DNA of 64,000 nucleotides from Candidatus Omnitrophota bacterium (GTDB taxonomy: Bacteria; Omnitrophota; Gorgyraeia; 2-01-FULL-45-10), in NCBI GenBank assembly GCA_030695905.1, contig JAUYOL010000015.1:8518-72517 (forward strand), given 5' to 3'. The notes beneath the pieces are model-generated. The model was given only the letters and a program-made list of their open reading frames with translations, did not search any database and was not told the DNA's origin. The translations under genes and the position numbers were made by a program. Below are positions 211 through 16,555 of this stretch, in pieces; position 1 is the first letter of the stretch; each line of letters opens with the position of its first letter.

Positions 211-1794
211 ATGGATAATCGTGATTATATAAAAAACATTCTGGATTCTGAAAAGATCGGCTTAGTTGATATATCTCAACCGCATAAGGATGAATTATAT
301 GTCGCCGTGGGCAGCGCCGATTTTCTCAAGGCATGCAATCTGCTGCACAAGCATCTCGACTCTCCGGTGATGATGTTTTTCGCCGAAGATCTACGGCGCC
401 TGTCCGGGAAATTTATTCTTTATTGCGCTTTTTTAAGTGTAAACAAACATTTATGGGTATTCGTTAAGCAGGAAATCCCGCAGGGCAAGACAATATTTGA
501 TTCTATCGCGAAAAATATATATTCCGCCAGTCTTTTTGAGCGCGAGATCAAGGAGATGTTCGGCATAGAGCCTGTAGGTAATCCGGATCCGCGAAGGCTT
601 AAGCTTCACGACGAGGTCTGGCCGGAAGGGAATTACCCCTTACGCAAAGATTTTATCCTGCGACGTGACGCTGCCCAAAAGACCGCGCAATATCAGTTTA
701 AGCGCGTTGAAGGCGAGGGAGTTTTTGAGGTTCCTGTCGGCCCTGTTCACGCCGGTATCATCGGCCCGGGCCATTTCAGATTTAGTGTAGCGGGGGAGCC
801 CATAATAAATTTAGAAACACGCCTTGGCTGGACACATAGAGGCGCGGAGAAGATACTCGAAGGAAAAAGCATTTCAGAAGCTGTAAATATCATAGAATGT
901 ATAAGCGGTGATACCGCGTTTGGATACAGCCTTGCTTTTTGTCAGAGTGCGGAGAAGATACTCGGTCTCAATATTCCGGACCGCTCGCAACTTCTGCGTG
1001 TATTGTATTTGGAACTGGAACGTATTTATAACCATGCCAACGATATAGGCGGCATCGCTTTAGATGTAAGCTTCAGCTTTCCCGCGCAATTCGCGAGCCT
1101 GATCAAAGAAGCCATATTACAACTTAATGACAGTTTAACGGGTTCCAGGTATCTTAAAGGCGTTAATGTTGTAGGCGGTATCGATAAAGATATTGACAAG
1201 GCCAAGTCAGGGCTTATTTGTGAAACGCTTGTAAAAATTCAAAAAGATTTTTTGGCGCTCGAAGAAATGCTTTTTTCCAGCGTCTCTTTTATGGACCGTG
1301 TTGATACAACAGGTATTTTACGCACTAAAACAGCCCGCGATCTCGGTATAACAGGGCCGGCGGCAAGAGCCAGCGGCATAGCGCATGATCTAAGAGGTAT
1401 TTTTCCGGGTATATATAACGATCTTTCTTTTAAGATATCAAAAGAGCTGTCGGGCGATGTGAAGGCCCGTCTCAAAATAAGATTCTCTGAAATAGAAGAA
1501 TCTATCAATCTTATACGATTGTGTCTGAAAAAGCTTGAGGGTTGCGCTTCCCAGGCCAAAGTTGCCGCGCAGGCAAAAGAGGGCATGGCATTAGGTTATG
1601 TAGAAGCCTGGCGCGGCGGTGTATTGATATGGACCAGGTTAAATGGAGAAGGAAAAATAGAACGATGCAAAATAGTAGATCCGTCTTTTCATAATTGGGA
1701 AGGCCTGTCTTTTGCCGTGCTCGGCAATATTATACCTGATTTTCCTTTGTGTAACAAAAGCTTTGACCTGTCATATTCGGGAAATGATCTATGA
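211..1794 (+). CDS. NuoC/NuoD-fused large-subunit-like protein of a group-4-hydrogenase-related (Ehr/Ech/Hyf-like) complex. The NiFe-binding cysteine pairs appear absent.
   Basis: The N-terminal third resembles NuoC (30 kDa). It is followed by PVGPVHAGIIGPGHFRF...RLGWTHRGAEK, typical of HycE/EchE/NuoD. At the positions of the L1 (RxCGxC) and L2 (DPCxxC) motifs it has ..IECISGDTAFGY.. and ..VDPSFHNW.. 527 aa. Confidence 0.8.
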   Translation: MDNRDYIKNILDSEKIGLVDISQPHKDELYVAVGSADFLKACNLLHKHLDSPVMMFFAEDLRRLSGKFILYCAFLSVNKHLWVFVKQEIPQGKTIFDSIAKNIYSASLFEREIKEMFGIEPVGNPDPRRLKLHDEVWPEGNYPLRKDFILRRDAAQKTAQYQFKRVEGEGVFEVPVGPVHAGIIGPGHFRFSVAGEPIINLETRLGWTHRGAEKILEGKSISEAVNIIECISGDTAFGYSLAFCQSAEKILGLNIPDRSQLLRVLYLELERIYNHANDIGGIALDVSFSFPAQFASLIKEAILQLNDSLTGSRYLKGVNVVGGIDKDIDKAKSGLICETLVKIQKDFLALEEMLFSSVSFMDRVDTTGILRTKTARDLGITGPAARASGIAHDLRGIFPGIYNDLSFKISKELSGDVKARLKIRFSEIEESINLIRLCLKKLEGCASQAKVAAQAKEGMALGYVEAWRGGVLIWTRLNGEGKIERCKIVDPSFHNWEGLSFAVLGNIIPDFPLCNKSFDLSYSGNDL

Positions 1795-2312
1795 ACCATT
1801 ATATTTTTAAAAATAGCCTAAGAAAGGGTAGAGTCACCATAAAACTCGATACAAAAAGTGTCCGCCCACCGACGGAGATTGAGTCTATGGGGCAAGAGCT
1901 TAAGAAGGCCATTCGCGCGAGATTCGGCAGGTCATTTCATATCCGTGAAGTGGATACCGGCTCCTGCGGCGGTTGTGAATCCGAGATAATAGCATGTTCC
2001 AACCCGCTATATGACATTCAGCGTTTTGGTATAGATTTTGTAGCCTCTCCCCGGCATGCCGACGCGCTTTTGGTTACCGGCCCTGTATCTAAAAATATGG
2101 AACTTGCGCTGAAAAAGACTTATCAGGCTATGCCCGAGCCTAAATTTGTAATTACTTTAGGAGACTGCGCAAAGGGCGCGGGCCCGTTTAAAGATTCTTA
2201 TTACACCTGCTCGGGCGCGCAGAATGTTCTACCTGTTACCATGCACATCCCGGGTTGCCCGCCAAACCCGACGACGATAATACAAACGTTACTGGTATTT
2301 CTACAAAGATAA
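1791..2312 (+). CDS. NuoB/hydrogenase small-subunit-like protein (proximal 4Fe-4S cluster subunit).
   Basis: Four conserved Cys in the HycG/NuoB pattern: GSCGGCESE, GDCAKG, PGCPPNP. Its start overlaps the stop of the large subunit (ATGA). Confidence 0.8.
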   Translation: MNHYIFKNSLRKGRVTIKLDTKSVRPPTEIESMGQELKKAIRARFGRSFHIREVDTGSCGGCESEIIACSNPLYDIQRFGIDFVASPRHADALLVTGPVSKNMELALKKTYQAMPEPKFVITLGDCAKGAGPFKDSYYTCSGAQNVLPVTMHIPGCPPNPTTIIQTLLVFLQR

Positions 2313-2350
2313 AAGCCTGGCTAAAAAAGCTCACCATAACCGCATATTTG

Positions 2351-2359
2351 TGATATAAT
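2351..2359 (+). promoter_or_regulatory. Putative extended -10 promoter element (TGaTATAAT) for the helicase gene.
   Basis: The sequence tgatataat lies about 20 nt upstream of the RBS gggaag and the ATG at 2379. No good -35 is present, which is common with an extended -10. Confidence 0.3.
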
Positions 2360-2378
2360 CTTACAAAAAGGGAAGATA

Positions 2379-3644
2379 ATGATAAAACATAATGGCAGCA
2401 ACCAGCAGAATGCTCCACTTGAGCCGGAGCAGGGATTTTTCGGGCTCGGCATAGCTCCAAAGATACTTGAGATACTTGAGCGCATTAAATTTAAGACACC
2501 TACCCCTATTCAGCGCAAAGCCATACCGCTCGCTATTGAGGGGAAGGATGTTATAGGTATTGCCCAGACGGGGACCGGCAAGACGCACGCGTTCGCTATA
2601 CCTATAATTCAGCAGTTAGCGAAAAAAGACGGCCTTGCGATAGTGCTTGCTCCCACGCGTGAACTCGCGCTGCAGATCGAAGAAGCCATACGTCCATTGG
2701 CGCAAGCCTTTGGGATGAGGACGGCTTGTCTCATAGGCGGGACTCCCATGCGTCCGCAAGAAGAGGCCCTGCGCAGGCGCCCGCATATCATAATAGCCAC
2801 CCCCGGGCGTTTTATCGACCATATGGAAAATAGAAATATTATGCTTATCAGGGCCGGCATGCTCGTTTTAGATGAAGCCGACCGCATGCTCGACATGGGA
2901 TTTGCTCCCCAAGTGGAGAGGATACTAAAAGGATTAACGCGCGAACGCCAAACGATGCTATTTTCGGCTACCATGCCGGCGGCGATAATGCGGATGATAA
3001 ATACTTATATGAAGCTTCCCGTGCATGTTGAGATCGCTCCATCAGGCACGACCGCCGAAGGCATAACGCAGGAGCTTTACATTGTAAAGCGTGAGGCAAA
3101 GCTGAGCCTTTTGCGCAAGATATTGGCGCAGCATAACGGTTCGGTGCTTCTTTTTTCGCGGACAAAACATAATGCGAAAAAGATCGCCAGGTCTATACGC
3201 GAAATGGGCCACCGGGCTACGGAGATCCATTCGAATAAGTCGATGTCACAAAGGCGTGAAGCGCTGGACGGGTTTAAGTCCGGCCGTTATCGCATACTCG
3301 TAGCTACCGATATCGCCTCAAGGGGCATAGATGTGACAAAGATAGAGATAGTAATAAATTATGATCTTCCGGAGGATGTGGAAAATTATGTGCACCGCAT
3401 AGGCCGTACCGGGAGAGCCGGGTGCAAGGGGCACGCCATCTCTTTTGCCACGCCGGATCAGAGTAGTGACGTAAAAAATATCGAGAAACTCATTAAGAAA
3501 CAGCTGCCGATAGCGAAACATCCTGAAATTCCGTCGGAGGAATTTGACAAGAATCAGAGGCCGCCTGTAAGCGCCGCGCATCACCGAGGCGCAGGGTTCG
3601 GGCATCGCTACAGGCCCAGGCCGGGGCATTTTTCTAGGAGATAA
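2379..3644 (+). CDS. DEAD-box ATP-dependent RNA helicase with a C-terminal RG-rich tail.
   Basis: Q-motif, Walker A AQTGTGKT, DEAD box (VLDEADRM), SAT, the HRIGRTGRAG motif VI, and an RG/HR-rich C-terminus. Confidence 0.9.
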   Translation: MIKHNGSNQQNAPLEPEQGFFGLGIAPKILEILERIKFKTPTPIQRKAIPLAIEGKDVIGIAQTGTGKTHAFAIPIIQQLAKKDGLAIVLAPTRELALQIEEAIRPLAQAFGMRTACLIGGTPMRPQEEALRRRPHIIIATPGRFIDHMENRNIMLIRAGMLVLDEADRMLDMGFAPQVERILKGLTRERQTMLFSATMPAAIMRMINTYMKLPVHVEIAPSGTTAEGITQELYIVKREAKLSLLRKILAQHNGSVLLFSRTKHNAKKIARSIREMGHRATEIHSNKSMSQRREALDGFKSGRYRILVATDIASRGIDVTKIEIVINYDLPEDVENYVHRIGRTGRAGCKGHAISFATPDQSSDVKNIEKLIKKQLPIAKHPEIPSEEFDKNQRPPVSAAHHRGAGFGHRYRPRPGHFSRR

Positions 3645-3678
3645 CCTATTAAAGGAAAGTAGAAAGGAGGGCGTAAAG

Positions 3679-4089
3679 ATGCGTGGAGTAAGGGTTTTAT
3701 TTTTTATAACAGTGGTTGGTTTTTTATGCCTTATCTGTAATTGGGCAAGCGCGGAAGATACAGTAGTTGCCGAGCATAAAGCCCAGGTCAGAGCGGATAA
3801 AGAAGCCATTAAAGAGCAGATCCAGGAAATAAAAGAAGATGCCCAGGCTGCCAGGGCCGAAGAAAAGCAGATAAGGGAACAGATGCGTCAGGCGCTTATA
3901 GCGGGCGATAAAGAAAAAGCGGCGCAGTTAAGAGAGCAGTTAAAGGCAACGCATGCCGAAAATGTTAAAGAGATGCGGATGGACAAGAAAGAATTAAGAG
4001 AAAATAAAAAAGACCTTCGGCAGGACATGAAAAAGCCGTTTAATCCTCCAGGCCCTCGGGGCGGCCCGGGAAGAGGCCCTAAGAAATAA
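3679..4089 (+). CDS. Small secreted K/E/Q-rich coiled-coil protein, possibly a Spy/CpxP/ZraP-like periplasmic protein.
   Basis: An N-terminal signal peptide (VVGFLCLICNWASA), then a highly charged helical repeat region (..AQLREQLKATHAENVKEMRMDKKELRENKKDLRQDMKK) and a PG-rich tail. A strong RBS aggagg lies upstream. Confidence 0.4.
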   Translation: MRGVRVLFFITVVGFLCLICNWASAEDTVVAEHKAQVRADKEAIKEQIQEIKEDAQAARAEEKQIREQMRQALIAGDKEKAAQLREQLKATHAENVKEMRMDKKELRENKKDLRQDMKKPFNPPGPRGGPGRGPKK

Positions 4090-4131
4090 CATATTATACT
4101 TTAGGTTCACCGATAATATTGTGACAATATA

Positions 4132-4169
4132 GCGGTTACAGCTGTGATTAGGCTGTAACCGCTTTTGTT
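4132..4169 (+). terminator. Rho-independent terminator after the small secreted protein gene.
   Basis: A perfect 11-bp stem, gcggttacagc (4132-4142) paired with gctgtaaccgc (4152-4162), a 9-nt loop, then TTTTGTT. Confidence 0.6.
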
Positions 4170-4290
4170 ACCGAATTCTTGTTAAGAAATGAAAAAACAT
4201 GCTTGTAATTTTTCCTGTTTTATGCTATTTTCTTATCCCTGTAATATTAGGTCGCACTAATCCAAAGTTAAACCAGAAGGAGTAGTTTTA

Positions 4291-7200
4291 ATGCGTAGAT
4301 TATTATTAATCGCAGCGGCACTCGTATCAGTGCTTACATCAAATGTTCAAGCATCGGATAACCAGCCATCATTCAGCATTATAGACGCGAAAGAGAAAGG
4401 CATATTCAATATAGGCCCAGCTGTCGGTGATGTTGTATCCAAGCAGGAAGAATCGGCCAAAAAAGAAGTTCTCGTATTGGATTATTCTATATTCAAGGGG
4501 GCCATAATAGGTGTTTGGACAAAGGGCTTTCCGAAAGGGATTAATCAAGAGGCGGTTGACGCTGTTAAGGTAGGGCTGAAGGTTCAAAATGACGAGTACT
4601 TAGATACAATTTCTGTAAAGCTTGAGATAAAAGGGTCGAAGGACGTGCAATCGGTTCCGCTGCGCCTGAAGAAAGGGTGGAACTATGTAAAGGAAACGAT
4701 AAACTGGAACACCATAGGCGATCTTAAAGAAGTAGTCTTTGTCGTAAGTCCTGTGACTATTAATCCTACCGGAGGCGATCCCATGTGGTGGTTCAGCACA
4801 CAGGAGGCTCCCACCGCAAAGAGCAATGGCAAGACCGACGGCATGCTTTATATAGACCTGGATTTTTACAAACTTACATTCCTGCAAAAATATTTCACCT
4901 TCATAAAATATGGGCTTGTTCTCATCTTAGGCCTTATCCTTGGCCTTGTCACATTGATATTTAGTGAATTGTTCGGCAAAAAACATAAGGCTGGTTCGGT
5001 TAAAAGGGCAGTGCCGACCGCTGGTTTCACACTTTCGAGTATTAAGCGCGATCTATTATATGGCATAGCCGCGGTTTCCATCATAGGCATATCTATGGCT
5101 GCGTTTTCCGTAGGATCTGCCCGCCTTCTGGATTCCGGTATAAGATTTGAGTTTCTGGCCATAGGATTGGCGGGCGCAGTTATCACATGGGTCATAAAAA
5201 GGGGTTTGACCGGAAAGAATCTTACGGCTGTAGAAGTTTTTCAGGATATTGTACTGACAGGAATACTCGCCGCCGCGTCGAGCAGACAGGCTGTCCTGCA
5301 GGCGCCTTCCAGCTGGGCTGATATATTAGTGTTCAGCAATCTAATAGCCGGTATAACACTTCTTATATATCACGTAGCCAATCTTTGCTCTATATCATCT
5401 TCCGGCAGGCACCTGAAATTTGTCACAGGGCTGCTGATAGCGATAACGCCGTATCTATTCAATTGGCTGTTATTATTGGAAAACGTCAGCATACCCCATA
5501 TGTTGGGCAATCTGCTTACATTTAATCTGCTTTCCGCCTGGCCGGCGATCTCCGGCATTATGGGCCGTGTCGTTATCGTGTTTATCTTTAACGAAGTTGT
5601 CACAAACATGATAAGTATCGCCATAGACGGCAAAGCGCTCAAGACTTTAAAAGCGCATCTCTTCACATTCTTTGTTTCACTGGCCATCTCTGTATCCCCC
5701 GATATCGCGGACCTTGGCTCAACTAAGATCATAGCGTCTTTGCCGGTGTTGTTAAGGGCGATCGCCTCTATCATCACAACTATGCTCTCTTATGCCGGTC
5801 TCTGGGGTGAGGTATATCTTATTACAGGAATGATATTGGATGGGATAAAGCGTGTCGCGCCTTCGCGTGAGGCCGTGTCCAAGAATATTATTACAGGTAT
5901 GCGCAAAGGTATGGCGTACAGCGGAATTTTAGTAGCATTCATGTACGCCCTTAAGATGCTGTTAGACGCGAATACTGTCCAGTCTATCGCGAAGAGCTTT
6001 CCTGTCATAGTAGGTATAGCGGTGGGAGCGGCGGTATTCCCGCTTCTAAAGACGATAATCGAGACCTTTGACGGAAGCCTGCCGTTTTTCCAGAGGATGC
6101 GATATAGTTATCGCGATGGAACACTTTATGCCAGGGGCGCTGTCGCCGGATTTGGGTTTGCCTACATGGTCACTCAAGGTTTTATTCAAAAGACCATGTC
6201 CGAGAGGATTTTATTTGGTACGACAACCGGCCTTATCGCGTCGGGCGGTATAAGCATTTTAAGGGACATATTTTACGCGATAAAACATCAAGGTAAAATT
6301 CAGTCGTGGAGGCTGTATTTTACGGACTCTATATTTGGCGCTTTTGCCGGGAGCGCTTTGGCGTTTTATATAGACGCTCTGCAGGTGCCGGTTGTTATAG
6401 AGAAGTTCAAGCTGTATATGAGTTCCGGGTTGCCTCCGGCCGATTACGTGACGTATCCGCTGATCAATAAATGGGGCCGTGTCAATCTTGGGACATACTC
6501 CGGCGGGCCGAAGCTTCTTTTTATAGAGTCTTTAGCCGGTGTAATAAATTGGTCTATAGCCGCGTGGTTGTTCGCGGTGAACAAGGTATTCATGCAGGCG
6601 TTTTTTGACAAAGATAAGACGCCGATAAAGTTTTTCTTCTCAAAAGCAGGGTTCGCGCAGCTTATGGAGCATATGCTCTATGTATTGAGATGGGGCCTGT
6701 GGATGTCGCCGATAATCTTTACATTCCTGCGCATGATGCCCAACCCTACATGGTATAACCAGGACGGCGCTATCAGGACAGCAGTCGCTATCTACAATAA
6801 TATTACGATGTCACCCGAGACATTTAACGCGTGGAGCCTCAAAGTATTCGTGTATGTTCTCGCTTTTGACATCTTCCGCGTTCTTATATGGATGGATCAT
6901 ATGGGATTACGTGTCGCAACGCTCGTCAACCTAAGCTTCATAGGCATGGATAAGCTGGACGAAAAAGTGTCCCGCTTTATCGGTCCGGCCGCGGCGCAAA
7001 GATACATACCCGAGGGGATCAAGAGGTTCGCTACATGGGCGCCGCTTTTAATACCTTTCTATCTTCCGCGCGGCCAGGATTGGGATTACGCCTGGAGCAC
7101 GGCGGAGGGCATACAGAGCGCTTCCAAAGACGCCGGCTTGGTGGCTAATATAAATTCTCTTGGGTTACCCGAAAAGATAACTCTTATATTCGCGGCTATA

Positions 7201-10200
7201 GCGTTATTTACTATACTATCCTTCGTCGGGCGTTTGTGGGGAAAGCGTATCAAGGAGCGCAAAGATAGAAATTATGAACTGACTAATGGAGAGTATAAAG
7301 TTACCGTCAAGGATACGGGCGAGGTCTTCAGCGAGTCCATATACAAGGAGCATGATGTGAGCCGCCGCTCTTACGATATTATAGATCCATGCGGAAGAAT
7401 TCTTTATCTTGTCGACGCTTCCGAATCCTCCGACAGTAAAAAACGTTATTGGCCCGTAGTCGGTAATTTTCCAAAGAAGCAGTTCGAACCTTCCAAAATT
7501 CAGAAGAATGAAGATTCGATAGAGTTTGTTAACGTTGCCAACGGCGTGAGCGCGTCTGTTAACATAACCATTCCGGATCCGGATGATATGGCGGAGATGT
7601 GGGCCATAAAACTTGAAAATACGACAGATAAGAAAAGAGAGCTTAAGGTCGTTCCATATTTAGAATGGGTGCTCAATAGAGCGCTCGATGACAGATTCCA
7701 TACGCAATACCAGAGGCTATATCCCGAAATGGAATACTTGAGCGAATTAAATACCATGCTTTCATGGCAGAAGAGCACAAAGGCGATGGGTATTCTGGCC
7801 AGCGATATCCCGGCACAGGGGATCCTTTCCTCGCGCGTAGATTTTATCGGCCGCGCGCAGAGCATATGGTCTCCGAGAGCGTTGGAGACCCTTAAATTTT
7901 TACCTGCCGGCGATACAGCCTCACACCCGACTTTCGATCCTATAGGGAGTCTGCTATTAGGTGTGTCGCTTGAGCCAAACTCATCGAAGACCTTTAATAT
8001 ATTGATAGGGTACTCGAAGAATAAGAAGGCAGCTTTAGAGCTTATAAATAAACACTTAAAGCCCAAAGGGATAAAGAAGCCGGCGGTGGAGAAAAAATCT
8101 CCTTTTATCGGTCATGGAGAAATTCCGGCGGGTACTCCTAAGCCATATTTTAGATATGAGGATAACGGTAATAAACTTATCGTGAATACTCCCTACACTC
8201 CGCGTCCTTATGACCATGCGTTATCGAACGCGATACATTCGGTAATGGTCACAAACCGTGGCCTTCATACATCGTGCAATGGTAATTCACAGCAGAACAG
8301 GTTGACTCCTGATTGGCCGGACATAGCGACGAAAGAGATACCGACGGAAGCCATATATCTCTATGATGAGAATAACGGCAGTTGGTATTCGCCCACGTAT
8401 CATCCTTTGAATGACAAGAACGCTAAATATGAATCCGAATTCGGCACAGACGGGACGGCGGTGTTTAGAATGTTACGCCAGGCGGTCTCCACAGAATTAA
8501 AAGTCTTCGTTCCGCATGACGATCCGCTGGGTGTTTATCTGTTAAAGATAAATAATAATTCCGATAAGCCGTTAAAGATGCGCGTCGCCCCATATTTCGA
8601 GATGACGCTTGCGTTCCAGCCCGAAAGATCAGGGCCTCTGCAGGCCAAGCGCGATAAAGTTTCCGGAGCGCTTTTATATGAAAACCCGCGCAATATTTTT
8701 AGATCGGGATGGGCATTCGCTTCTATGTCGTTGCCGTCACAGAAATTCGAGACGCGCCGCGGCAGATTTTTTGGAAACGGCCGAGGAGTCACAAACCCTT
8801 ACATGGTAGAAAAAGGAGAATCGGATAAGACGCAGTTTACCGACGACAGGGCAATCGCTTCCTTTATCGGCACAGTCGAGATCCCCGCCGGACAAGAGCG
8901 CGAGATAGCCGTTATATTGGGGCAGACAGATACCAAGAAAGATGCTCTTTCCCTCGCGCGCAAATATAACGATATAGGGTTGGTCAAAAAAGCGCTGGAT
9001 GATACACGCAACTGGTGGATGAAGCTCATGGGTACGCTTTCTGTCCAGACCAATAAGCCGGAATTCGATTATTATCAAAACTGGCTTAAGTATCAGGCGC
9101 TCGCGGAACGTATATGGGCAAGGCGCGGGTTCTATCAGACGAGCGGCGCGTACGGATTCAGGGACCAGCTTCAGGACACAGTGAACCTTATATGGATAGA
9201 CCCTGCTTTGGCGCGTAAACAGCTGATATTGCACGCGTCCCAGCAGTTTATAGAAGGCGATGTATTCCATTGGTTCTTTACGTTAACGGACGGCAGAACT
9301 TCGTTTTCCTGCAGATCTCACGCTTCGGATAACCCCGTCTGGCTTGCATGGGGCATCGTGGAATATATAAGAGCCACCGGCGATCATTCAATACTCGATG
9401 AGATGACTTCATATGTGGTATCGGAATTTCCTTTTGCGCCGCTTCCGAAAAACAAGCAGGGGTGGGGCCATATGTATCATCGTTCGACGCGCTCCGATAC
9501 CGTTTATAAACACTGCATGAGGTCCATAGACCTGATATTAAAGAAGCGTTCAGGGAAGCACGGGCTCCCGCTGATGGGAGTAGGCGACTGGAACGACGGA
9601 TTGGACGAGATAGGCAGTGAGGGCAAAGGCGAAAGTATATGGCTCGGCTTCTTCCTGTACTATATCTTGAAGGGAATGGTAGATATTATAGAGATGAAGG
9701 ACGGGCCGTCGCGTAAAGAATATTACGTGAAGAGAATGGCAAAACTCAAATCCGCGCTTGAAGACACATGGAGAGGCGACAGGTATCTGCGCGCCTTCCA
9801 CGACAATGGCATGGAGATAGGCGTAAAAGACAGCGGAATATGGGAGATAGACGCGCTTACCGCGTCGTGGGCCGTTATAGCGGGCATGGACTTTGACAGA
9901 TGCGTGACGATATTCTCCACCGCGCTGCAGGTGCTCGAAAAGGATAACGCGATATTGCTCGGTTGGCCGGCGCTACGCGAAGACTCGAAGCCTTATTTAG
10001 GCAGATCCAGCAAGTATCCGGAAGGCGTGCGCGAAAACGGTATGTATTGCCATGGCGTCCAGTGGCTTATCAGGGCCGCGCGTATCATCGCAGAAGAGTT
10101 CGATAAAAAAGGCAATCAGGATAAAGCCGGTGAATATAGGGCGACCGCTTACAGATTATGGCTTAAGGTTTCAGCTATATGGCATATGACGGAAAAAGAG

Positions 10201-10434
10201 ATTGAGGTCTATGGCGGACAGCCCAATAAGCAGGCGGCCGATCTTTTGACGAACTTCGATCCCGGCAGGATGATATGGCATGGTTATACAGGCGCCGCGG
10301 GATGGATGCTGCGTCAGGCTATGGAGGGCGTGATAGGCGCGTCTTTGGTGAAGAACGAACTTATTATGCCGTCAGACCTGGATAAGCCAAGAGGAGAATT
10401 AAAGATAAAAAGTGTCCGAAGGGAATGCGCATAG
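4291..10434 (+). CDS. Giant (2047 aa) polytopic membrane protein. It has a signal peptide, a periplasmic N-domain, a membrane region of about 750 aa, and a C-terminal region of about 1000 aa resembling a GH94-family glycoside phosphorylase / cyclic beta-1,2-glucan synthase C-terminal domain.
   Basis: A strong RBS aggag precedes the start, and there is a signal peptide. Many hydrophobic helices lie between roughly aa 200 and 950. The C-terminal part contains GFYQTSGAYGFRDQLQD and GVGDWNDGLDE, which resemble the GH94 (alpha/alpha)6-barrel catalytic motifs. This is an uninterrupted 6.1-kb ORF. Confidence 0.6.
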   Translation: MRRLLLIAAALVSVLTSNVQASDNQPSFSIIDAKEKGIFNIGPAVGDVVSKQEESAKKEVLVLDYSIFKGAIIGVWTKGFPKGINQEAVDAVKVGLKVQNDEYLDTISVKLEIKGSKDVQSVPLRLKKGWNYVKETINWNTIGDLKEVVFVVSPVTINPTGGDPMWWFSTQEAPTAKSNGKTDGMLYIDLDFYKLTFLQKYFTFIKYGLVLILGLILGLVTLIFSELFGKKHKAGSVKRAVPTAGFTLSSIKRDLLYGIAAVSIIGISMAAFSVGSARLLDSGIRFEFLAIGLAGAVITWVIKRGLTGKNLTAVEVFQDIVLTGILAAASSRQAVLQAPSSWADILVFSNLIAGITLLIYHVANLCSISSSGRHLKFVTGLLIAITPYLFNWLLLLENVSIPHMLGNLLTFNLLSAWPAISGIMGRVVIVFIFNEVVTNMISIAIDGKALKTLKAHLFTFFVSLAISVSPDIADLGSTKIIASLPVLLRAIASIITTMLSYAGLWGEVYLITGMILDGIKRVAPSREAVSKNIITGMRKGMAYSGILVAFMYALKMLLDANTVQSIAKSFPVIVGIAVGAAVFPLLKTIIETFDGSLPFFQRMRYSYRDGTLYARGAVAGFGFAYMVTQGFIQKTMSERILFGTTTGLIASGGISILRDIFYAIKHQGKIQSWRLYFTDSIFGAFAGSALAFYIDALQVPVVIEKFKLYMSSGLPPADYVTYPLINKWGRVNLGTYSGGPKLLFIESLAGVINWSIAAWLFAVNKVFMQAFFDKDKTPIKFFFSKAGFAQLMEHMLYVLRWGLWMSPIIFTFLRMMPNPTWYNQDGAIRTAVAIYNNITMSPETFNAWSLKVFVYVLAFDIFRVLIWMDHMGLRVATLVNLSFIGMDKLDEKVSRFIGPAAAQRYIPEGIKRFATWAPLLIPFYLPRGQDWDYAWSTAEGIQSASKDAGLVANINSLGLPEKITLIFAAIALFTILSFVGRLWGKRIKERKDRNYELTNGEYKVTVKDTGEVFSESIYKEHDVSRRSYDIIDPCGRILYLVDASESSDSKKRYWPVVGNFPKKQFEPSKIQKNEDSIEFVNVANGVSASVNITIPDPDDMAEMWAIKLENTTDKKRELKVVPYLEWVLNRALDDRFHTQYQRLYPEMEYLSELNTMLSWQKSTKAMGILASDIPAQGILSSRVDFIGRAQSIWSPRALETLKFLPAGDTASHPTFDPIGSLLLGVSLEPNSSKTFNILIGYSKNKKAALELINKHLKPKGIKKPAVEKKSPFIGHGEIPAGTPKPYFRYEDNGNKLIVNTPYTPRPYDHALSNAIHSVMVTNRGLHTSCNGNSQQNRLTPDWPDIATKEIPTEAIYLYDENNGSWYSPTYHPLNDKNAKYESEFGTDGTAVFRMLRQAVSTELKVFVPHDDPLGVYLLKINNNSDKPLKMRVAPYFEMTLAFQPERSGPLQAKRDKVSGALLYENPRNIFRSGWAFASMSLPSQKFETRRGRFFGNGRGVTNPYMVEKGESDKTQFTDDRAIASFIGTVEIPAGQEREIAVILGQTDTKKDALSLARKYNDIGLVKKALDDTRNWWMKLMGTLSVQTNKPEFDYYQNWLKYQALAERIWARRGFYQTSGAYGFRDQLQDTVNLIWIDPALARKQLILHASQQFIEGDVFHWFFTLTDGRTSFSCRSHASDNPVWLAWGIVEYIRATGDHSILDEMTSYVVSEFPFAPLPKNKQGWGHMYHRSTRSDTVYKHCMRSIDLILKKRSGKHGLPLMGVGDWNDGLDEIGSEGKGESIWLGFFLYYILKGMVDIIEMKDGPSRKEYYVKRMAKLKSALEDTWRGDRYLRAFHDNGMEIGVKDSGIWEIDALTASWAVIAGMDFDRCVTIFSTALQVLEKDNAILLGWPALREDSKPYLGRSSKYPEGVRENGMYCHGVQWLIRAARIIAEEFDKKGNQDKAGEYRATAYRLWLKVSAIWHMTEKEIEVYGGQPNKQAADLLTNFDPGRMIWHGYTGAAGWMLRQAMEGVIGASLVKNELIMPSDLDKPRGELKIKSVRRECA

Positions 10435-11249
10435 TCCATAAAGTATTTTTTACCCTATTAGTATTTATCTTAATAACTGTATCGGCGGCATCTGCCGCCG
10501 ATACAGTCCAGCCTAAATCAGGTATCTTACACACCAAAGATGGTATAATCATTTCATACGACCATTACAAAGAAGGTTCGAGGCCCGTCATTATAGTGTG
10601 CCCCGGATTTTTTAACAGCAAAGACAATAGATGGATGCGCAGATCCGTCGAGATGCTTAATTCTAATTATGACGTGATAATATTCGATTTTCGCGGTCAC
10701 GGAAAAAGCACAGGCAAATATACATGGTCGGCAAAAGAGTACATGGATCTGGACGCGGTTATAGATTACGCGAAGTCTTCTGGGTATAAATATATAGGCA
10801 TACTTGCTTTTTCTCTCGGCGCGGCCGTGGCGGTGAATGAAGCCGCCGTAAGAAGCGACATTGACAGTATGGTGCTTATAAGCTGCCCTTCAAGATTCCA
10901 GAGCATAGACTACTGTTTCTGGGAGCCCGGGATGTTTTCTGACTTAAAAGACAATATGGAATGTAATTGGCAGGGCAAGGGCGCGAAATTTTCGAATATA
11001 TTTATGCATAAAGAAGATCCGATAGACTCGATACGCCTTATAAAAAACACACCTCTGCTTTTTTTACAGGGAGACAATGATTGGGTAATAAAGGCCAGGC
11101 ACGCCAAAAAATTATATGACGCCGCAATATCAGAAAAGAAGCTCGGGATAATAAAAGACGGGCTGCACGCCGAGAGGCTATTACAGTTTCATTATGATGA
11201 GGTTAAAGATCTTGTGTTAGACTGGTTTTCCAAAACAATAAAGTCATAG
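10425..11249 (+). CDS. Secreted alpha/beta-fold hydrolase.
   Basis: A signal peptide, then FDFRGHGKSTG and a nucleophile-elbow-like AFSLGAA, then a GDNDW..H acid/His region. It overlaps the stop of the giant gene. Confidence 0.6.
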   Translation: MRIVHKVFFTLLVFILITVSAASAADTVQPKSGILHTKDGIIISYDHYKEGSRPVIIVCPGFFNSKDNRWMRRSVEMLNSNYDVIIFDFRGHGKSTGKYTWSAKEYMDLDAVIDYAKSSGYKYIGILAFSLGAAVAVNEAAVRSDIDSMVLISCPSRFQSIDYCFWEPGMFSDLKDNMECNWQGKGAKFSNIFMHKEDPIDSIRLIKNTPLLFLQGDNDWVIKARHAKKLYDAAISEKKLGIIKDGLHAERLLQFHYDEVKDLVLDWFSKTIKS

Positions 11250-11253
11250 TCAG

Positions 11254-12444
11254 ATGGATATGAAATTGTCCAAAGTTAAAAGCGTCCGTTATTGCATTGT
11301 TTTTGTATTGTGCGCCTCTATCCTCGCGGGATGCTCGTCCATACCGATACAGACATCATCGTCATATTTTAAGGATCTTTATAAGCGTATCCAATATACC
11401 ATGGACGGCCGGTACAGAGTGGTCGATATCTTCTATGCCACGACCAGAAAGTTGAATGAAAATAAGACATCATCCATATATTTTACCAATAAAATTTCCG
11501 ACAGCCTGGCGACAGGAGAACTTAATATAAAGATAGACCCGGGGTTAAGGATAGAGAAGATGCTGCCTAAACGCCTGAAAAGAGAAGGTATAATAGGCAT
11601 ACAGGATATAACTAAGTCCGACGAAGACGCGTTTATAAAAAAGTTATCGGATACGGTAAAATCATCGCCGCATAAATCCCTTCTCGTCGTTGTGTTTGGT
11701 TACAAAGATGATTTCGAGGCCACGGCAATTAAGGCGGCATATTTCGCGTATCTGCTTGATATAAATACTCCGGTACTTCTTTTTGATTGGCCCGGAGATC
11801 AGCCCGTTGATATAGGCGGTTATAAAAATGCCCAGGGGTTTGCTACGGAGTCAGGACACCGCCTGGGAGAGCTATTAATAAAGATAAACCGTGAGGTTAA
11901 GCCTGAAAAGCTATGGGTTAAAGCGTCCAGCCTTGGCTGCCAGGTTGTATGTGATGCCTTTGATCAGATGTATAAATGTTCGGACTGTTCCGACGCCGAT
12001 ACGGAGATAGATCATGTTATATTGGCCGCTCCTGATGTTAGCCAGGACGAATTCGACAACAAATTTAAGGAGCAATTAATGGCGCTTTCAAATAGGCTGA
12101 CCGCGTATGTCTCTTCCGACGATGAAGCGCTGCTTGTAAGCGGCCTCATAAATGACGATAGGAGGCTTGGCCGTCAGAAACCCAGGATAAAGGATCCGGC
12201 GCAGCTTGAGGAAGCGAAGAATCTATTATACTTGAAGTCTCAAAATCCGGACAGGGTAACCGTTATCGACGTGACGCCGATAAATTACGCGAGCTACAAG
12301 CACGGTTATTATCTTGAGTCTCCGGAATTCTTCGATGATTTCTATATGCGTATATTTGGTACAAATCCGAGTTTAAATCGCAGATTATATCTTCTTAAGT
12401 TCAAAGACAAGACCGATTATTGGGTCTTGCAGGGCAATAGGTAG
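11254..12444 (+). CDS. Lipoprotein, alpha/beta-hydrolase-like (DUF900-like esterase fold).
   Basis: A lipobox LAGCSS follows the signal peptide. It has KASSLGCQVV (xSxLG elbow) and a downstream D/H. Confidence 0.45.
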   Translation: MDMKLSKVKSVRYCIVFVLCASILAGCSSIPIQTSSSYFKDLYKRIQYTMDGRYRVVDIFYATTRKLNENKTSSIYFTNKISDSLATGELNIKIDPGLRIEKMLPKRLKREGIIGIQDITKSDEDAFIKKLSDTVKSSPHKSLLVVVFGYKDDFEATAIKAAYFAYLLDINTPVLLFDWPGDQPVDIGGYKNAQGFATESGHRLGELLIKINREVKPEKLWVKASSLGCQVVCDAFDQMYKCSDCSDADTEIDHVILAAPDVSQDEFDNKFKEQLMALSNRLTAYVSSDDEALLVSGLINDDRRLGRQKPRIKDPAQLEEAKNLLYLKSQNPDRVTVIDVTPINYASYKHGYYLESPEFFDDFYMRIFGTNPSLNRRLYLLKFKDKTDYWVLQGNR

Positions 12445-12464: not shown

Positions 12465-12493
12465 TTGACGCGCCTTCTCTTTTGCAATACAAT
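12465..12493 (+). promoter_or_regulatory. Sigma70-like promoter: TTGACG, a 17-bp spacer, then TACAAT.
   Basis: A near-consensus -35 at 12465-12470 and -10 at 12488-12493. The predicted TSS is about 12500, inside the annotated TTG-start of the GNAT ORF. Confidence 0.4.
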
Positions 12494-13108
12494 GATCGTG
12501 TGCAAAAGATAACTGTAAGACGAGGGAAGCCCGAAGACGCCCACCATTTTTCCGAACTCGTTGCGTTATCAAGTCCCGCGCTTTTTTTAGTCCTCTTTGG
12601 CTCAAAAGTAAAAAGATTGATGGAAAAACTCTTTCCGCATAAAAGGCACTACTATAGCTTTGACAGGTCTTTCTTTATTGAGGTCGACGGAAATACGGCG
12701 GGTATGGCGCAGTTGCACAGATTCAGACCCAGAAGAAGAGAAAAGATAAACCTGACTTTTCTGCTTATGAAGTATATGAATTGGCGCCTGCCTTCGAGCG
12801 TAGCCCCACTTTTAATGTCAGAAAAGATCATCAGAGATTTTTCAGGCAGAGACTGTTATTTGAGTAATGTCGCGGTCTACCCCGAATATAGAAGCCTTGG
12901 CCTTGGTTCAAAACTATTAGGCGCCATCGAAGAAGAAGTAAAGAGCGCCGGTAAAAATAGAATAGTGCTTCATGCGGATGCTAAAAATCATGGCGCAATC
13001 AGGTTATACGAAAGGCTCGGATACAGGATAGAAGAGAAGTCCCCCACTCTTAAGATTAGAAATAAATATTTTGATTATCTTATTATAAAAAAGAATCTTG
13101 CTTCTTAA
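12482..13108 (+). CDS. GNAT-family N-acetyltransferase. The true start may be the GTG at 12500.
   Basis: ITVRRGKPEDAHHFSEL (GNAT N-terminus); acetyl-CoA binding motif A VAVYPEYRSLGLGSKLL; and ..RLYERLGY. Confidence 0.7.
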   Translation: MQYNDRVQKITVRRGKPEDAHHFSELVALSSPALFLVLFGSKVKRLMEKLFPHKRHYYSFDRSFFIEVDGNTAGMAQLHRFRPRRREKINLTFLLMKYMNWRLPSSVAPLLMSEKIIRDFSGRDCYLSNVAVYPEYRSLGLGSKLLGAIEEEVKSAGKNRIVLHADAKNHGAIRLYERLGYRIEEKSPTLKIRNKYFDYLIIKKNLAS

Positions 13109-14468
13109 CTCTTCCCAGGTAGTAATACCAAAAGTCCAATCCCCTGTAACACTCCGACGCGGATGTATCTATTAAGGTATCGCTATCTATGCCGAACTCG
13201 GAAAGCTTATACAGGTTATCATTCTTCAACAGTTTGTGTTTTAGCAGTATTGCCGAGCCTATAATATTCGCCGGCATCCCTTTACGCAAACCCTCCTTAT
13301 TATTGCCATTACATATAAGATGATACTCCAGATTTCCCGATAAGACGCTCAAAATTTGTATTGCTATGGATATGAATATGAGAATAACGGCAAAATATCG
13401 CGCCAGACATTTTTTGGAGATAAAAATATAAAGCGGAAATAACCAAAGAAATATTGTCGGCACGAGAAGCCGCGGCCCCCAGCACCATCCGCCGTACCAC
13501 ATATGCCACATGGATATCGCGATAAGATTCGATAGTATTATGGATACAAAGAATACCGCTTCCCTGCGATAGTCCTTAAAAATTTTTATATAACCTATCA
13601 CGCTTAATATAAGTATTGGATTATATATAAATATTCCTTTATCCAGATAGTACAGTAATTTCGGGATATTTGTCTTTATGCCGGATAGATAGAACATGCC
13701 CGCTTCAGCGCCGTAACCAAATTCGAATATATCATGAAATCTTATATAGTTTAAAGATAGGCTAAAGCAGATAGCGCCCAGGATAAACGATAAAAATATC
13801 AGGCCGTGGGCGGCAGCGCGTTTTATATTCTCCTTATTTATTAGCCATATATAAACAAGGAACGGCGGCGCATATATTAAGTTAATGGTTCCTATCAAGA
13901 TAAGGAAAGCGTATGACGTGCCCGCCGCCAACAAACTATTTTTTGTATTTTTCAGGGTAAGATATACTGAAAGTATCAGAAAAAAGCCTTGGGTTACTTC
14001 CGAGAAGGTCCATATGCTATAGCGCCACTGCATCGTTGCCAGGCCCAGCACAAAAGCCATTATTACCGCGGTCTTTAATGGGACATAGAATTTTTTATAT
14101 AGCATGCGGAAGAATATTGCCGCCGCGCCGGCGCCGAAGAAGATATTATAAAAAGATACCAGAAAATTTACTATGAACTCTTTTGGGGCCGCGCTTATAT
14201 GCGCGATAAGCTTTGAGGCAAGAATAAAAGGGATAAATATTACCGCAAGGCCTATTCCGTATTTTGAATAGTATTTCCCATCCCGGGATTCAAAGCAATA
14301 CCCTCCTGTGTGCTCATCTATGGCCAGAGAGCCTTTCTCAATAATGGATTCCGCGGTGAGAATAGAGAAATGGGTGTCGCTTATCTCTATGAATCCTTTT
14401 GCCGTGATAAGATATATCAGGCCGAGCAGGCAGAATATGAGGATAGCGCTTTTTGTTGTCTTATCCAT
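13083..14468 (-). CDS. Polytopic membrane glycosyltransferase-like protein (ArnT/PMT/GT39-like).
   Basis: About 12 TM helices and the motif WHMWYGGWCWGPRLLVP, which is reminiscent of GT-C family transferases. It is divergent from the GH3 gene. Confidence 0.45.
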   Translation of the reverse strand: MDKTTKSAILIFCLLGLIYLITAKGFIEISDTHFSILTAESIIEKGSLAIDEHTGGYCFESRDGKYYSKYGIGLAVIFIPFILASKLIAHISAAPKEFIVNFLVSFYNIFFGAGAAAIFFRMLYKKFYVPLKTAVIMAFVLGLATMQWRYSIWTFSEVTQGFFLILSVYLTLKNTKNSLLAAGTSYAFLILIGTINLIYAPPFLVYIWLINKENIKRAAAHGLIFLSFILGAICFSLSLNYIRFHDIFEFGYGAEAGMFYLSGIKTNIPKLLYYLDKGIFIYNPILILSVIGYIKIFKDYRREAVFFVSIILSNLIAISMWHMWYGGWCWGPRLLVPTIFLWLFPLYIFISKKCLARYFAVILIFISIAIQILSVLSGNLEYHLICNGNNKEGLRKGMPANIIGSAILLKHKLLKNDNLYKLSEFGIDSDTLIDTSASECYRGLDFWYYYLGRVKKQDSFL

Positions 14469-14511
14469 AGCGTATATTATATAATAATCACAATAAATAG
14501 AGGTTTAAAAA

Positions 14512-16167
14512 TTGCGCATAGCGTATCTTGCTTTAAAAATACTGGCGCCTAAAGCCAGGCATTTCGAGAATTCCACAAAAAAACCCATAGAGGTTCAGAA
14601 AAAACTGCTTTTCCAATATCTGCATCGTAATAAGAATACCGAATATGGAGTCAAATATCACTTTTCGCATGTGAAATCCATCGGGGATTACCGCATGCTC
14701 GTTCCAATGAGCGATTCCGAAACCATCTTTCCGTATGTAGAGAAGATTAAGAAAGGGACCAATAATATCCTCACGAAGGATAAAGTTGTATTTTTCGGGC
14801 TTACAAGCGGCACCACCGGAAAACCGAAATTCATTCCGGTGACAAATTTTTCCCGGAAGAAGAAAGCCGAAGTGATGGATCTCTGGGCGTATTATATATT
14901 GAAAGATCATCGCGATGCATTGGACGGGAAGGTGCTTGCCATAATAAATCCCGATGACGATGATGCGACGGATATAGGTATACCGGTGGGCGCCGAAAGC
15001 GGTCATGCGTATAAAAATATGCCGCGTATGATAAAAAAGTTTTACGCGGTGCCTTACAATGTGTTTATGATACAGGATTACGAGTCCAGGTATTACTGCA
15101 TAGCGAGGATAGCCCTGGAAAAGAACGTAACTACCATTGCCACGCTGAATCCAAGCACTATCGTTCTTCTTTGCCATAAGATAGAAAAATATAAAGACGA
15201 GCTTATCGAGGATATAGAGAAGGGGACTTTAAGTAAGAATGTAAAAGTGCCGCCTTACGCAAGAAACGCTTTTGAGCGCACTTTCAGGCCGAATAAAAAA
15301 AGAGCCGATGAATTAAAGAATATTCTAAAAGAAAAAAAAGAGTTGCTGCCGAAATATTTTTGGCCAAACCTTAAACTCATAGAGTGCTGGAAGGGCGGGA
15401 CTGTAAAATTATACCTAAGAGAATTGCCGCAGTATTTCGGCGGCGTTCCCATAAGAGATTTCGGCTGCCTTTCAACGGAAGCCCGCAGCTCGATACCTAT
15501 GAGCGACACGGGAGCCGGCGGGGTCCTCGCGATAAACACCAATTTTTATGAATTTATTCCAAAAGAAGATATTGGAAAGAGCGAAAAGCGTTTTCTTTTG
15601 TGCGATGAACTGGAGAAGGCTAAAGAATATTATCTTATAGTTACTACTCCGGGCGGATTATACAGGTATAATATAGATGATATAATTACCGTTACCGGAT
15701 TTTATAACAGGACGCCTGTCATAGAATTTGTGCAGAAAGGGTTAAACGCCGTTTCTATAATGGGAGAGAAGCTTTATGAGTCTCAAGTGAATGAGGCGGT
15801 AAACAGGGCTGCCGATAAACACAAGCTTCTTATAGCCTTTTTCTCCGCCTGCGCCCAGTGGAATCCGCCAAGATATATATTTCTTGTGGAGTTTGGAAGA
15901 AACGGCCAGAGTGTGAATAAACAGGCATTATTAAGATCCATAGAGGAAGAGCTTGGTAAGGAAAATTCCGAATATAAATATGTCCGCGATTCGCAGCTGT
16001 TAAAGCCTCCTGTGCTGAAAGTAGTCAAGGCGGGAGAGTTTGAGAAGTATCGCGTCAGGCGTGTTAGTGAAGGCGCCAACGATAGCCAATTTAAAGTAGC
16101 CGAATTGACGGCCAATGCAGATTTTGAGAAAAACTTCGCGGTGGAGGAAGAGATCTGCCTGGATTAG
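14512..16167 (+). CDS. GH3-family (auxin-responsive GH3-like) adenylate-forming acyl-acid amido synthetase, copy 1.
   Basis: LTSGTTGKPKFIPVT matches the GH3 SSGTTxGxxKxIP AMP-binding motif. It has YRYNIDDIITVTGF, is 551 aa long, and uses a TTG start that aligns with the paralog's N-terminus. Confidence 0.75.
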   Translation: MRIAYLALKILAPKARHFENSTKKPIEVQKKLLFQYLHRNKNTEYGVKYHFSHVKSIGDYRMLVPMSDSETIFPYVEKIKKGTNNILTKDKVVFFGLTSGTTGKPKFIPVTNFSRKKKAEVMDLWAYYILKDHRDALDGKVLAIINPDDDDATDIGIPVGAESGHAYKNMPRMIKKFYAVPYNVFMIQDYESRYYCIARIALEKNVTTIATLNPSTIVLLCHKIEKYKDELIEDIEKGTLSKNVKVPPYARNAFERTFRPNKKRADELKNILKEKKELLPKYFWPNLKLIECWKGGTVKLYLRELPQYFGGVPIRDFGCLSTEARSSIPMSDTGAGGVLAINTNFYEFIPKEDIGKSEKRFLLCDELEKAKEYYLIVTTPGGLYRYNIDDIITVTGFYNRTPVIEFVQKGLNAVSIMGEKLYESQVNEAVNRAADKHKLLIAFFSACAQWNPPRYIFLVEFGRNGQSVNKQALLRSIEEELGKENSEYKYVRDSQLLKPPVLKVVKAGEFEKYRVRRVSEGANDSQFKVAELTANADFEKNFAVEEEICLD

Positions 16168-16533: not shown

Positions 16534-16555
16534 GATAGGCCGGGAGGGTAGAAAA

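Follow-up and report, generated by a model that had tools for sequence, protein, structure and literature searches.

The stretch of DNA analysed here (the window) comprises 64,000 nucleotides of an assembly assigned to Candidatus Omnitrophota (GCA_030695905.1, contig JAUYOL010000015.1, positions 8,518 to 72,517) and carries on its plus strand a giant gene encoding a polypeptide of 2047 amino acids (Table 1). The protein joins a large polytopic membrane domain to a C-terminal glycoside phosphorylase module of family GH94 (clan GH-Q). Probably it acts as a machine, of a kind not described before, that transports beta-1,2-glucan through the membrane and uses phosphate to cleave or assemble it. 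An earlier note, made from the letters of this DNA, had drawn attention to an uninterrupted 6.1-kb open reading frame (ORF) with its own upstream terminator and a strong ribosome-binding site, and all three features hold. Translation of 4291..10434 (+) encounters no internal stop codon, the Shine-Dalgarno sequence lies 8 nt before the ATG, and the terminator hairpin proper (4131-4163) is followed directly by TTTTGTT. This hairpin is predicted to close the upstream unit, from which the giant gene would be transcriptionally isolated.

That assembly or gene calling has joined separate genes, a possibility also raised in the earlier note, is barely conceivable. The GC content does climb from approximately 0.42 to 0.50 along the gene, and split or frameshifted homologues exist (loci L009, L011, L025 and L037; proteins P0097 and P0152). 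However, of the 38 loci returned by a scan of GTDB species genomes for homologues of the giant gene, more than 25, in independent assemblies from several phyla, encode one continuous protein (2038-2720 aa, aligned over query residues ~5-2046), and 91 proteins of at least 1550 aa that carry both the membrane and the GH94 halves (hereafter long members) were retrieved. Since the same full-length architecture recurs in more than 25 independent assemblies, the ORF is not a chimera. Among the split homologues, that in the complete Omnitrophota chromosome CP070780.1 (L037, 9890..16149) appears as two ORFs (256 aa and 1837 aa), divided just past the carbohydrate-binding module (CBM) and the first transmembrane region. 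The division may be genuine, or may reflect a frameshift or a sequencing error; the genes in L009, L011 and L025 are likewise split.

Table 1. Features of the giant gene and its immediate surroundings, in window positions and protein residues
Feature	Positions	Strand	Residues	Remarks
Intrinsic-terminator-like hairpin and T-tract	4131..4170	+		13 bp stem, 7 nt loop
Shine-Dalgarno GAAGGAG	4276..4282	+		8 nt before ATG; read from sequence
Giant gene, membrane-integrated GH94 protein	4291..10434	+	1-2047	ATG start, complete ORF, stop codon included
Sec-type signal peptide (predicted)	4291..4356	+	1-22	cleavage after VQA; n-h-c layout read from sequence
Periplasmic CBM11-like beta-jelly-roll (predicted)	4363..4875	+	~25-195	AlphaFold2, Foldseek and hhalign
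Polytopic membrane domain, no known fold matched	4879..7263	+	197-991	~19 crossings; conserved core at residues ~470-935
Motif ETFDGS			591-596	membrane domain
Motif RWGLWMSP			800-807	membrane domain
Motif PTWYNQDG			819-826	membrane domain
Motif DHMGLRVATLVNLSF			869-883	membrane domain
Irregular Pro-rich crossing FATWAPLLIPFYLPR			913-927	membrane domain
First GH94-type supersandwich	7288..8160	+	~1000-1290	weaker PF06165 stretch (~1030-1290); predicted cytoplasmic
Second GH94 supersandwich (PF06165)	8200..8922	+	1304-1544	Pfam E 4.9e-75
GH94 catalytic (alpha/alpha)6 barrel (PF17167)	9013..10338	+	1575-2016	Pfam E 3.5e-62
Secreted alpha/beta hydrolase, 274 aa	10425..11249	+		signal peptide; start overlaps the stop codon of the giant gene
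DUF900 alpha/beta-hydrolase lipoprotein, 396 aa	11254..12444	+		lipobox LAGC; membership of the system uncertain

Domain layout of the giant protein

The N-terminus has the layout of a Sec signal sequence, MRRLLLIAAALVSVLTSNVQA, with the predicted cleavage point before the following S. The beta-rich periplasmic domain of about 180 aa that the earlier note placed behind it appears as an all-beta sandwich at residues ~25-195 in an AlphaFold2 (AF2) model, with a pLDDT of ~77; the model was derived from a run on residues 1-1100 with a 10-sequence alignment (overall pLDDT 49), from which only this domain was used. The top three Foldseek matches of the domain are to CtCBM11 (1v0a, 6r3m; E 4e-5 to 1e-4, TM 0.54-0.57), and alignment by hhalign with Pfam-confirmed CBM11 proteins of related loci gave a probability of 81.5% (E 1e-5); there is no direct Pfam match. 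To the earlier description we can therefore add that the modelled domain is CBM11-like and is a putative carbohydrate-binding module. Homologues of the giant protein contain one to five tandem copies of it, and a large subfamily of ~1640-1830 aa lacks it.

The membrane domain was modelled with AF2 over residues 195-1000 from a 52-sequence alignment (pLDDT 89.8, pTM 0.89). Hydropathy, the helices of this model and the family-wide alternation of charge according to the positive-inside rule agree on ~19 crossings between residues 197 and 991, close to the 20 or more helices in about 750 aa estimated previously. The loops alternate regularly across the family between net-positive and neutral or acidic, and together these data indicate an orientation with the N-terminus outside and the C-terminus inside, so that the GH94 module is predicted to be cytoplasmic. 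Such a location is also a requirement of an enzyme that works with inorganic phosphate (Pi) and glucose 1-phosphate (Glc1P).

At ~800 residues this domain far exceeds a simple anchor, as the earlier note had remarked. Across the 52 aligned sequences, whose identity to the query is only 32-61%, conservation reaches 90% or more at 104 positions. WYNQDG and RWGLWM[AS]P each occur in all 91 long members, DHMGLRVATLVN in 84 and E[ST]FDG in 80 of them, and the conserved motifs are located on both membrane faces. The near-invariant positions and motifs, together with the presence of GH94 in every complete member checked, argue that the membrane domain is not a passive anchor.

No relative of this domain could be detected. 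Searches with Pfam on residues 195-1000 gave no match even at E <= 10, NCBIfam gave nothing on the giant protein, and a Foldseek comparison with 350,542 PDB chains yielded a best E of 0.12 and TM values of at most 0.15. By these three methods the domain has no detectable similarity to known transporter or glycosyltransferase folds, including MFS, ABC, RND/MMPL, MOP/MATE, APC, GT-C, the GT2 channel and PNPT. Pairwise hhalign comparison of six membrane-domain segments revealed no internal duplication or inverted-repeat symmetry, the single match arising from overlapping residues. Neither among Pfam families nor among solved structures does the membrane half have a detectable relative, and it is a categorically new module.

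The C-terminal part, by contrast with the membrane half, belongs to a known family. The earlier note had read GFRDQLQD and GVGDWNDGLDE as barrel motifs of a GH94-like phosphorylase, and the match proved highly significant: PF06165 is found twice and PF17167 once, the Pfam scores for both families lie far above gathering scores, and no other Pfam family is represented in the giant protein. In the PDB, the closest sequence is that of the GH94 region of Agrobacterium Cgs (8rf9, E 5.5e-104), followed by those of cellobiose, lactose and chitobiose phosphorylases (E 1e-40 to 1e-23). The phmmer alignment to 8rf9 is confined to Cgs residues ~1544-1782 and 2037-2758. The first supersandwich, the more divergent of the two, is equivalent to GP1 of Cgs (residues 1544-1782, matched by the paralogous copy) and to the extra N-terminal domain of the 1,2-beta-oligoglucan phosphorylase SOGP, and is matched by phmmer to the N-domains of cellobiose and lactose phosphorylases (E 9e-4). 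The module therefore has the layout of supersandwich, supersandwich and (alpha/alpha)6 barrel seen in Cgs GP1-GP3 and in soluble SOGPs.

The catalytic motifs are GFRDQLQD at 1622 (R1624), GDWND at 1765 (D1766/D1769) and ENGMYCH (H1921). The phosphate-binding Arg, the acid Asp and the His align column for column with those of Cgs and of the cellobiose phosphorylase of C. thermocellum, and the GH94 catalytic motifs are kept in 82-88 of the 91 long members, which answers the earlier call for a check on the catalytic Asp and the phosphate-binding residues. The module appears to be a complete GH94 phosphorylase of the Cgs/SOGP type with intact catalytic motifs, and the activity typical of GH94, phosphorolysis with inversion that releases alpha-glucose 1-phosphate, is predicted. 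A Verrucomicrobia metagenome-assembled genome (MAG) encodes a soluble homologue that stands alone (protein P0241; 1060 aa, 53% identity), from which it follows that the GH94 module is a functional unit by itself. A second candidate for a soluble version, P0180, was rejected as it is cut by a contig end.

The nearest soluble enzymes in design are the SOGPs, such as Lin1839 of Listeria innocua and LpSOGP of Lachnoclostridium phytofermentans. These share the GH94 layout of two supersandwiches and a barrel in ~1050-1100 residues, act reversibly on beta-1,2-gluco-oligosaccharides with Pi and Glc1P, are specific for a degree of polymerisation of 3 or more, and their genes share loci with those of a sugar ABC importer and of further enzymes for beta-1,2-glucan. 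However, they are soluble cytosolic proteins characterised from Gram-positives, whereas the module described here is part of a protein that also contains an 800-residue membrane domain and a periplasmic CBM. The similarity in sequence is remote and falls below detection, with no SOGP chain among the PDB sequence matches at E <= 0.01.

The family and its gene neighbourhoods

A profile search over 1.84 billion cluster representatives (50% identity) assigned 590 clusters to the giant-protein family at E <= 1e-3, of which 229 reach E <= 1e-30. All complete members checked by Pfam carry GH94 and no other Pfam domain; two apparent relatives lacking GH94 (P0152 and P0097) were rejected as frameshifted sequences of the same family. 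Named carriers belong to the Omnitrophota (the majority of close relatives), Elusimicrobiota, FCPU426, Planctomycetota (Isosphaeraceae, Gemmataceae), Kiritimatiellae and Verrucomicrobia, and the gene also occurs on contigs with Desulfovibrio-like (Hmc complex) and proteobacterium-like neighbours. When we looked for a cultured carrier we met only metagenome-derived proteins; the few source names given are those of MAGs, with no isolate among them. We found no description of this architecture, a polytopic domain joined to a glycoside phosphorylase, in the literature searchable here.

Secreted proteins of the SGL (beta-1,2-glucanase) clan are encoded within 10 kb of the family gene, often directly adjacent to it, in about 15 of 44 loci. 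These loci derive from Omnitrophota, Elusimicrobiota, FCPU426, Planctomycetota, Kiritimatiellae and one proteobacterium-like contig, and thus from at least five phyla. Two kinds of SGL protein are represented. The first, of the PF10091/GH144 type, carries CBM11, CBM30 or CBM9 and in one case a type IX secretion system (T9SS) sorting tail, and is found in Omnitrophota, Elusimicrobiota, FCPU426 and Kiritimatiellae. The second is related to EeSGL1 (PDB 8XUJ, E 2e-9), a member of SGL Group 1 whose endo-beta-1,2-glucanase activity has been verified by experiment (PMC12102758). Proteins of this second kind are encoded in the Omnitrophota locus L022, the proteobacterium-like contig L041 and the unassigned contig L047, as well as in L029, which is labelled Planctomycetota, and an Isosphaeraceae MAG. 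Also frequent in these loci are genes for a CUT1 sugar ABC importer (solute-binding protein and permeases), a ROK kinase, a separate GH94 protein of 790 aa, a two-component system and esterases acting on carbohydrates, among them a SASA-SGL fusion in L029 and a DLH esterase in L044. As SGL-clan genes are rare in genomes and yet adjoin the giant gene in at least five phyla, these neighbours are strong evidence that the giant protein handles beta-1,2-glucan, to which they narrow its predicted substrate.

A locus of ~20 kb in Omnitrophota (L003, 1..22934; also L005, L009, L036 and L037) is a candidate for a complete beta-1,2-glucan utilisation locus. Its genes encode, in order, a solute-binding protein, the 790-aa GH94, a response regulator, a histidine kinase, a CBM11 protein, a PF10091 and CBM30 protein, a tetratricopeptide-repeat lipoprotein, the giant membrane-GH94 protein, a PF10091/DUF3131 protein, two ABC permeases and ROK. 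This locus is present in the complete chromosome CP070780.1, which is 1.43 Mb in size. In L029 a large secreted protein in which an SGL Group-1-like domain is fused to a SASA carbohydrate acetylesterase is encoded immediately downstream of the giant gene (8696..12253), and in L022 an SGL Group-1-like domain lies inside a large secreted protein (an ORF of ~1887 aa; 1..5661); these fusions hint that the natural substrate may be an acylated glucan. A conserved lipoprotein or secreted protein of 670-720 aa without a Pfam match is encoded immediately downstream of the membrane-GH94 gene in L046 (5930..8095) and L047 (13429..15459), and ~6 kb downstream in L041 (22394..24400). As a distant relative of EeSGL1 (8XUJ, E 2e-9) it may represent a new subgroup of the SGL clan. 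In the Kiritimatiellae locus L044, the gene directly 3' of membrane-GH94 encodes a secreted HEAT-repeat/VWA protein of 606 aa (12920..14740), and the locus also contains genes for an esterase, two sulfatases, a PF10091 protein and an ABC exporter-type protein (ABC_membrane and ABC_tran, the ChvA/NdvA architecture).

Genes surrounding the giant gene in the window

The two secreted hydrolases that the earlier note saw downstream are indeed encoded there, one an alpha/beta hydrolase with a signal peptide and the other a DUF900 lipoprotein (Table 1), but they do not form a conserved operon with the giant gene. We assessed the conservation of NuoCD/NuoB, the DEAD helicase, the 136-aa ORF, the two hydrolases, GNAT, the GH3-type ligases and the epimerase, and dropped the three-gene operon as a general feature, as neighbours are common only to the closest relative (L002/L033, 84-86% identity). 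The 274-aa hydrolase, which is probably co-transcribed with the giant gene as its start overlaps the stop codon, is kept at this position only in L002, and DUF900 does not adjoin the 3' end of the giant gene in the contigs of that relative. Membership of the 274-aa hydrolase in the recurring esterase theme near family members (L029, L044) is weakly supported. A scan of the remainder of the window for glucan genes found none, and the neighbours, which include complex I genes, the DEAD helicase, hydrolases, GNAT, GH3-type ligases and cytochromes, are uninformative.

Directly upstream of the terminator, a secreted protein of 136 aa with a signal peptide (3679..4089, +) forms a Lys/Glu/Gln-rich predicted coiled coil with the C-terminal end PGPRGGPGRGPKK. 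Neither this protein nor the 461-aa product of an ORF that breaks the plus-strand run (13083..14468, -) has a Pfam match or a homologue in related loci. Further upstream are genes for a fused NuoC/D-like protein of 527 aa and NuoB (211..2312, +). A second complex-I-type cluster (29520..38640, -) encodes three Proton_antipo_M subunits, NuoH and a second 49-kDa subunit, so that the organism may possess two different complex I or Mbh-like modules.

Downstream of the hydrolases, a cluster at 12482..23882 (+) contains genes for two paralogous GH3-family proteins (PF03321, acyl-acid amido synthetase type; 14512..16167 and 19481..21139) together with GNAT, an NAD-dependent epimerase, an alpha/beta hydrolase, an enolase-superfamily (MR_MLE) protein, an MFS transporter and a radical SAM protein. 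From its content this cluster looks like one for small-molecule conjugation or biosynthesis, and it is conserved in L002 up to the second GH3 gene. The distal part of the window (43583..63267, +) carries haem biosynthesis genes (GluTR, HemD/methylase and two Ahb-type radical SAM proteins) followed by genes for several multihaem cytochromes c (Paired_CXXCH, MtrC/MtrF-like), ResB, cytochrome b and a cytochrome-b561 fusion. Considering that the closest relatives of this genome are Omnitrophota MAGs, its equipment for electron transfer is extensive. A 688-aa ORF at 51078..53144 has no Pfam match.

Possible roles in beta-1,2-glucan transport

The earlier note had suggested a novel membrane-integrated machine for processing or translocating glycans. 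The architecture is borne out; the function is put forward here as a proposal, in which movement may run in either direction, as import with phosphorolysis or as synthesis with export. It is reasonably probable that the membrane domain is a polysaccharide translocase of a new class, coupled mechanically to the glycoside phosphorylase, whether it operates outward or inward. As to direction, we tentatively favour inward translocation of beta-1,2-glucan coupled to cytoplasmic phosphorolysis. According to this scheme, SGL-clan beta-1,2-glucanases in the periplasm or on the surface would cut environmental or prey beta-1,2-glucans, including cyclic and osmoregulated periplasmic glucans, assisted by esterases that strip acyl substituents from the glucan. 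The CBM11-like module would then capture glucan chains and the membrane domain would conduct them over the inner membrane, with the Trp, Tyr, Asn, Gln, Asp and Arg motifs on both of its faces. The fused GH94 would take glucose units off the non-reducing end with Pi, yielding alpha-glucose 1-phosphate without expenditure of ATP, and consumption of the chain would keep the movement inward.

In this scheme the fusion would couple transport to chemistry as group translocation does, although for an oligo- or polysaccharide. The analogy with the phosphotransferase system is purely functional: in both cases transport across the inner membrane would be coupled to phosphate chemistry and the sugar trapped as a cytoplasmic phosphate ester, whereas here the phosphate would come from Pi through glycosidic phosphorolysis of an oligo- or polysaccharide rather than from a phosphoenolpyruvate relay, and there is no homology between the systems.

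The inward direction is favoured by the catabolic character of the conserved neighbours, together with the degradative direction of phosphorylases at cellular Pi/Glc1P ratios. Glycoside phosphorylases are catabolic in vivo, as cellular Pi far exceeds glucose 1-phosphate. The catabolic look of the loci comes from CUT1 importers, the ROK kinase, the 790-aa GH94, the CBM9, CBM11 and CBM30 modules, the T9SS tail and the carbohydrate esterases. Cgs, which is the closest characterised GH94, acts on beta-1,2-glucan (PMC10901819, PMC3960220).

Several points weigh against inward translocation. Specificity for beta-1,2 linkages is predicted from homology to the GH94 of Cgs (E ~1e-104) and from gene neighbourhood, and no glucan gene lies nearby in the window itself or in about two thirds of the loci. 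The ABC importer found in the same loci could make a second import route unnecessary. Isolated family genes occur in a Desulfovibrio-like contig, and organisms of this kind are usually not saccharolytic. Furthermore, the pore or cavity required of the membrane domain is a putative one, and phosphorolysis at a leading non-reducing end is a sink rather than a true ratchet.

A real, though less probable, alternative is that the protein is a synthase and exporter. GH94 acting in reverse would add glucose from alpha-glucose 1-phosphate to the non-reducing end of beta-1,2-glucan, or the membrane domain would itself be a glycosyltransferase of new fold. The chain would be extruded reducing-end-first to the periplasm in the geometry of BcsA-BcsB, guided by the CBM11-like module, and neighbouring SGL-clan enzymes would trim or cyclise it in the manner of OpgG/OpgD or the GH189 of Cgs. 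This would give an osmoregulated periplasmic glucan whose synthesis requires no nucleotide-sugar glycosyltransferase. It is in keeping with this idea that the gene set resembles that of Cgs with the new membrane domain in place of the polymerase, GH94 being fused and an SGL-clan enzyme adjoining, that conservation is higher in the membrane motifs than in the catalytic motifs of GH94, and that the phyla of all lineages seen here are generally considered diderm. The gene frequently stands by itself, also in settings where sugar catabolism would not be expected, and has been retained in the 1.43-Mb Omnitrophota genome; both observations fit a housekeeping function in the envelope. The periplasmic CBM beside the first membrane helix resembles BcsB. 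In addition, GH94 enzymes of the SOGP type readily make beta-1,2-glucan from Glc1P in vitro (PMC3960220).

The likeness to BcsA-BcsB and other synthase-dependent exopolysaccharide systems is again a functional analogy only, in that a cytoplasmic site at the non-reducing end of a beta-glucan would lie under a polytopic domain, with a carbohydrate-binding jelly-roll anchored beside it in the periplasm. In contrast to these systems, a GH94 phosphorylase takes the place of GT2, there is no detectable common fold and no PilZ/c-di-GMP control, and the direction may be inward. Synthesis would moreover be disfavoured by cellular Pi/Glc1P ratios unless translocation were energised, and no primer-forming function is evident. 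The absence of a glycosyltransferase domain, already remarked in the earlier note, was upheld: none (GT84, GT2 or other) was found by Pfam or NCBIfam, nor at E <= 10 on residues 195-1000, and neither Pfam nor Foldseek against the PDB detected a known glycosyltransferase fold in the membrane domain. The neighbours also speak against an exporter, as they are catabolic (ABC importers with solute-binding proteins, the ROK kinase, esterases, and T9SS-sorted and CBM-rich glucanases).

It is unlikely that the protein is a tethered phosphorylase that translocates nothing, in which GH94 would degrade oligosaccharides delivered by the ABC importer, the membrane domain would position GH94, sense, dock to a permease or interact with lipid, and the periplasmic CBM would act as a ligand sensor. 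Many of the same loci do encode an ABC importer, the soluble homologue indicates that GH94 catalysis needs no membrane domain, and the pore through that domain is conjectural. However, 800 residues with 104 near-invariant positions, many of them polar or aromatic and on both faces, are far beyond the needs of a tether; GH94 is present in every complete member checked; and no signalling output domain was found by Pfam or NCBIfam.

That the giant protein is simply a member of the Cgs family is very improbable and was rejected: its GH94 half is most similar to that of Cgs, but the defining GT84 polymerase, a GT2-like glycosyltransferase that uses UDP-glucose, and the central GH189 cyclase (PF10091; none by Pfam) are absent, as is the Rossmann-like insert. 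The two proteins nevertheless share a common plan. Both are large inner-membrane proteins with a C-terminal GH94 module, cytoplasmic in Cgs and predicted to be so here, that consists of an extra supersandwich (GP1), a second supersandwich and a barrel with common catalytic motifs. Both are also associated with an (alpha/alpha)6 enzyme of the SGL clan, which in Cgs is the fused GH189 and here is encoded by a separate neighbouring gene in many genomes. The GH94 of Cgs, its length-control module, contains a Rossmann-like insert between GP1 and GP2 (PMC10901819), whereas only ~50 residues separate the two supersandwiches of the giant protein. Cgs has 6 transmembrane helices, in contrast to the ~19 crossings of unrelated fold described here, and lacks the periplasmic CBM11-like domain; its SGL enzyme is cytoplasmic, whereas the partner SGL enzymes of the giant protein are extracytoplasmic.

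Beta-1,2-glucans, both cyclic and osmoregulated periplasmic, are important in osmoadaptation, symbiosis and virulence, and their enzymology has recently been charted (SOGP, GH144, GH162, GH186, GH189 and the structure of Cgs). The family described here is large, uncharacterised and mis-annotated in several mostly uncultured phyla, so that metabolic reconstructions built on its current label are probably wrong. Its GH94 half adds a new member to a known family and its membrane half is new in kind. If the membrane domain does conduct glycan chains, it would represent a polysaccharide translocase of a new type and the first instance of transport coupled directly to glycoside phosphorolysis or to phosphorylase-driven synthesis. 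Inward movement would amount to processive glucan import coupled to phosphorolysis. In the boldest case, that of outward movement, the protein would be an equally unprecedented, nucleotide-sugar-independent synthase, extruding beta-1,2-glucan built from glucose 1-phosphate for periplasmic processing by SGL-clan enzymes to osmoregulated or cyclic glucans, and would add to OpgH and Cgs a third route to periplasmic glucans, hitherto unrecognised. Our findings suggest two possibilities for Omnitrophota and related small-celled bacteria: that their own periplasmic glucans are made by an unknown route, or that they harvest such glucans from other bacteria.

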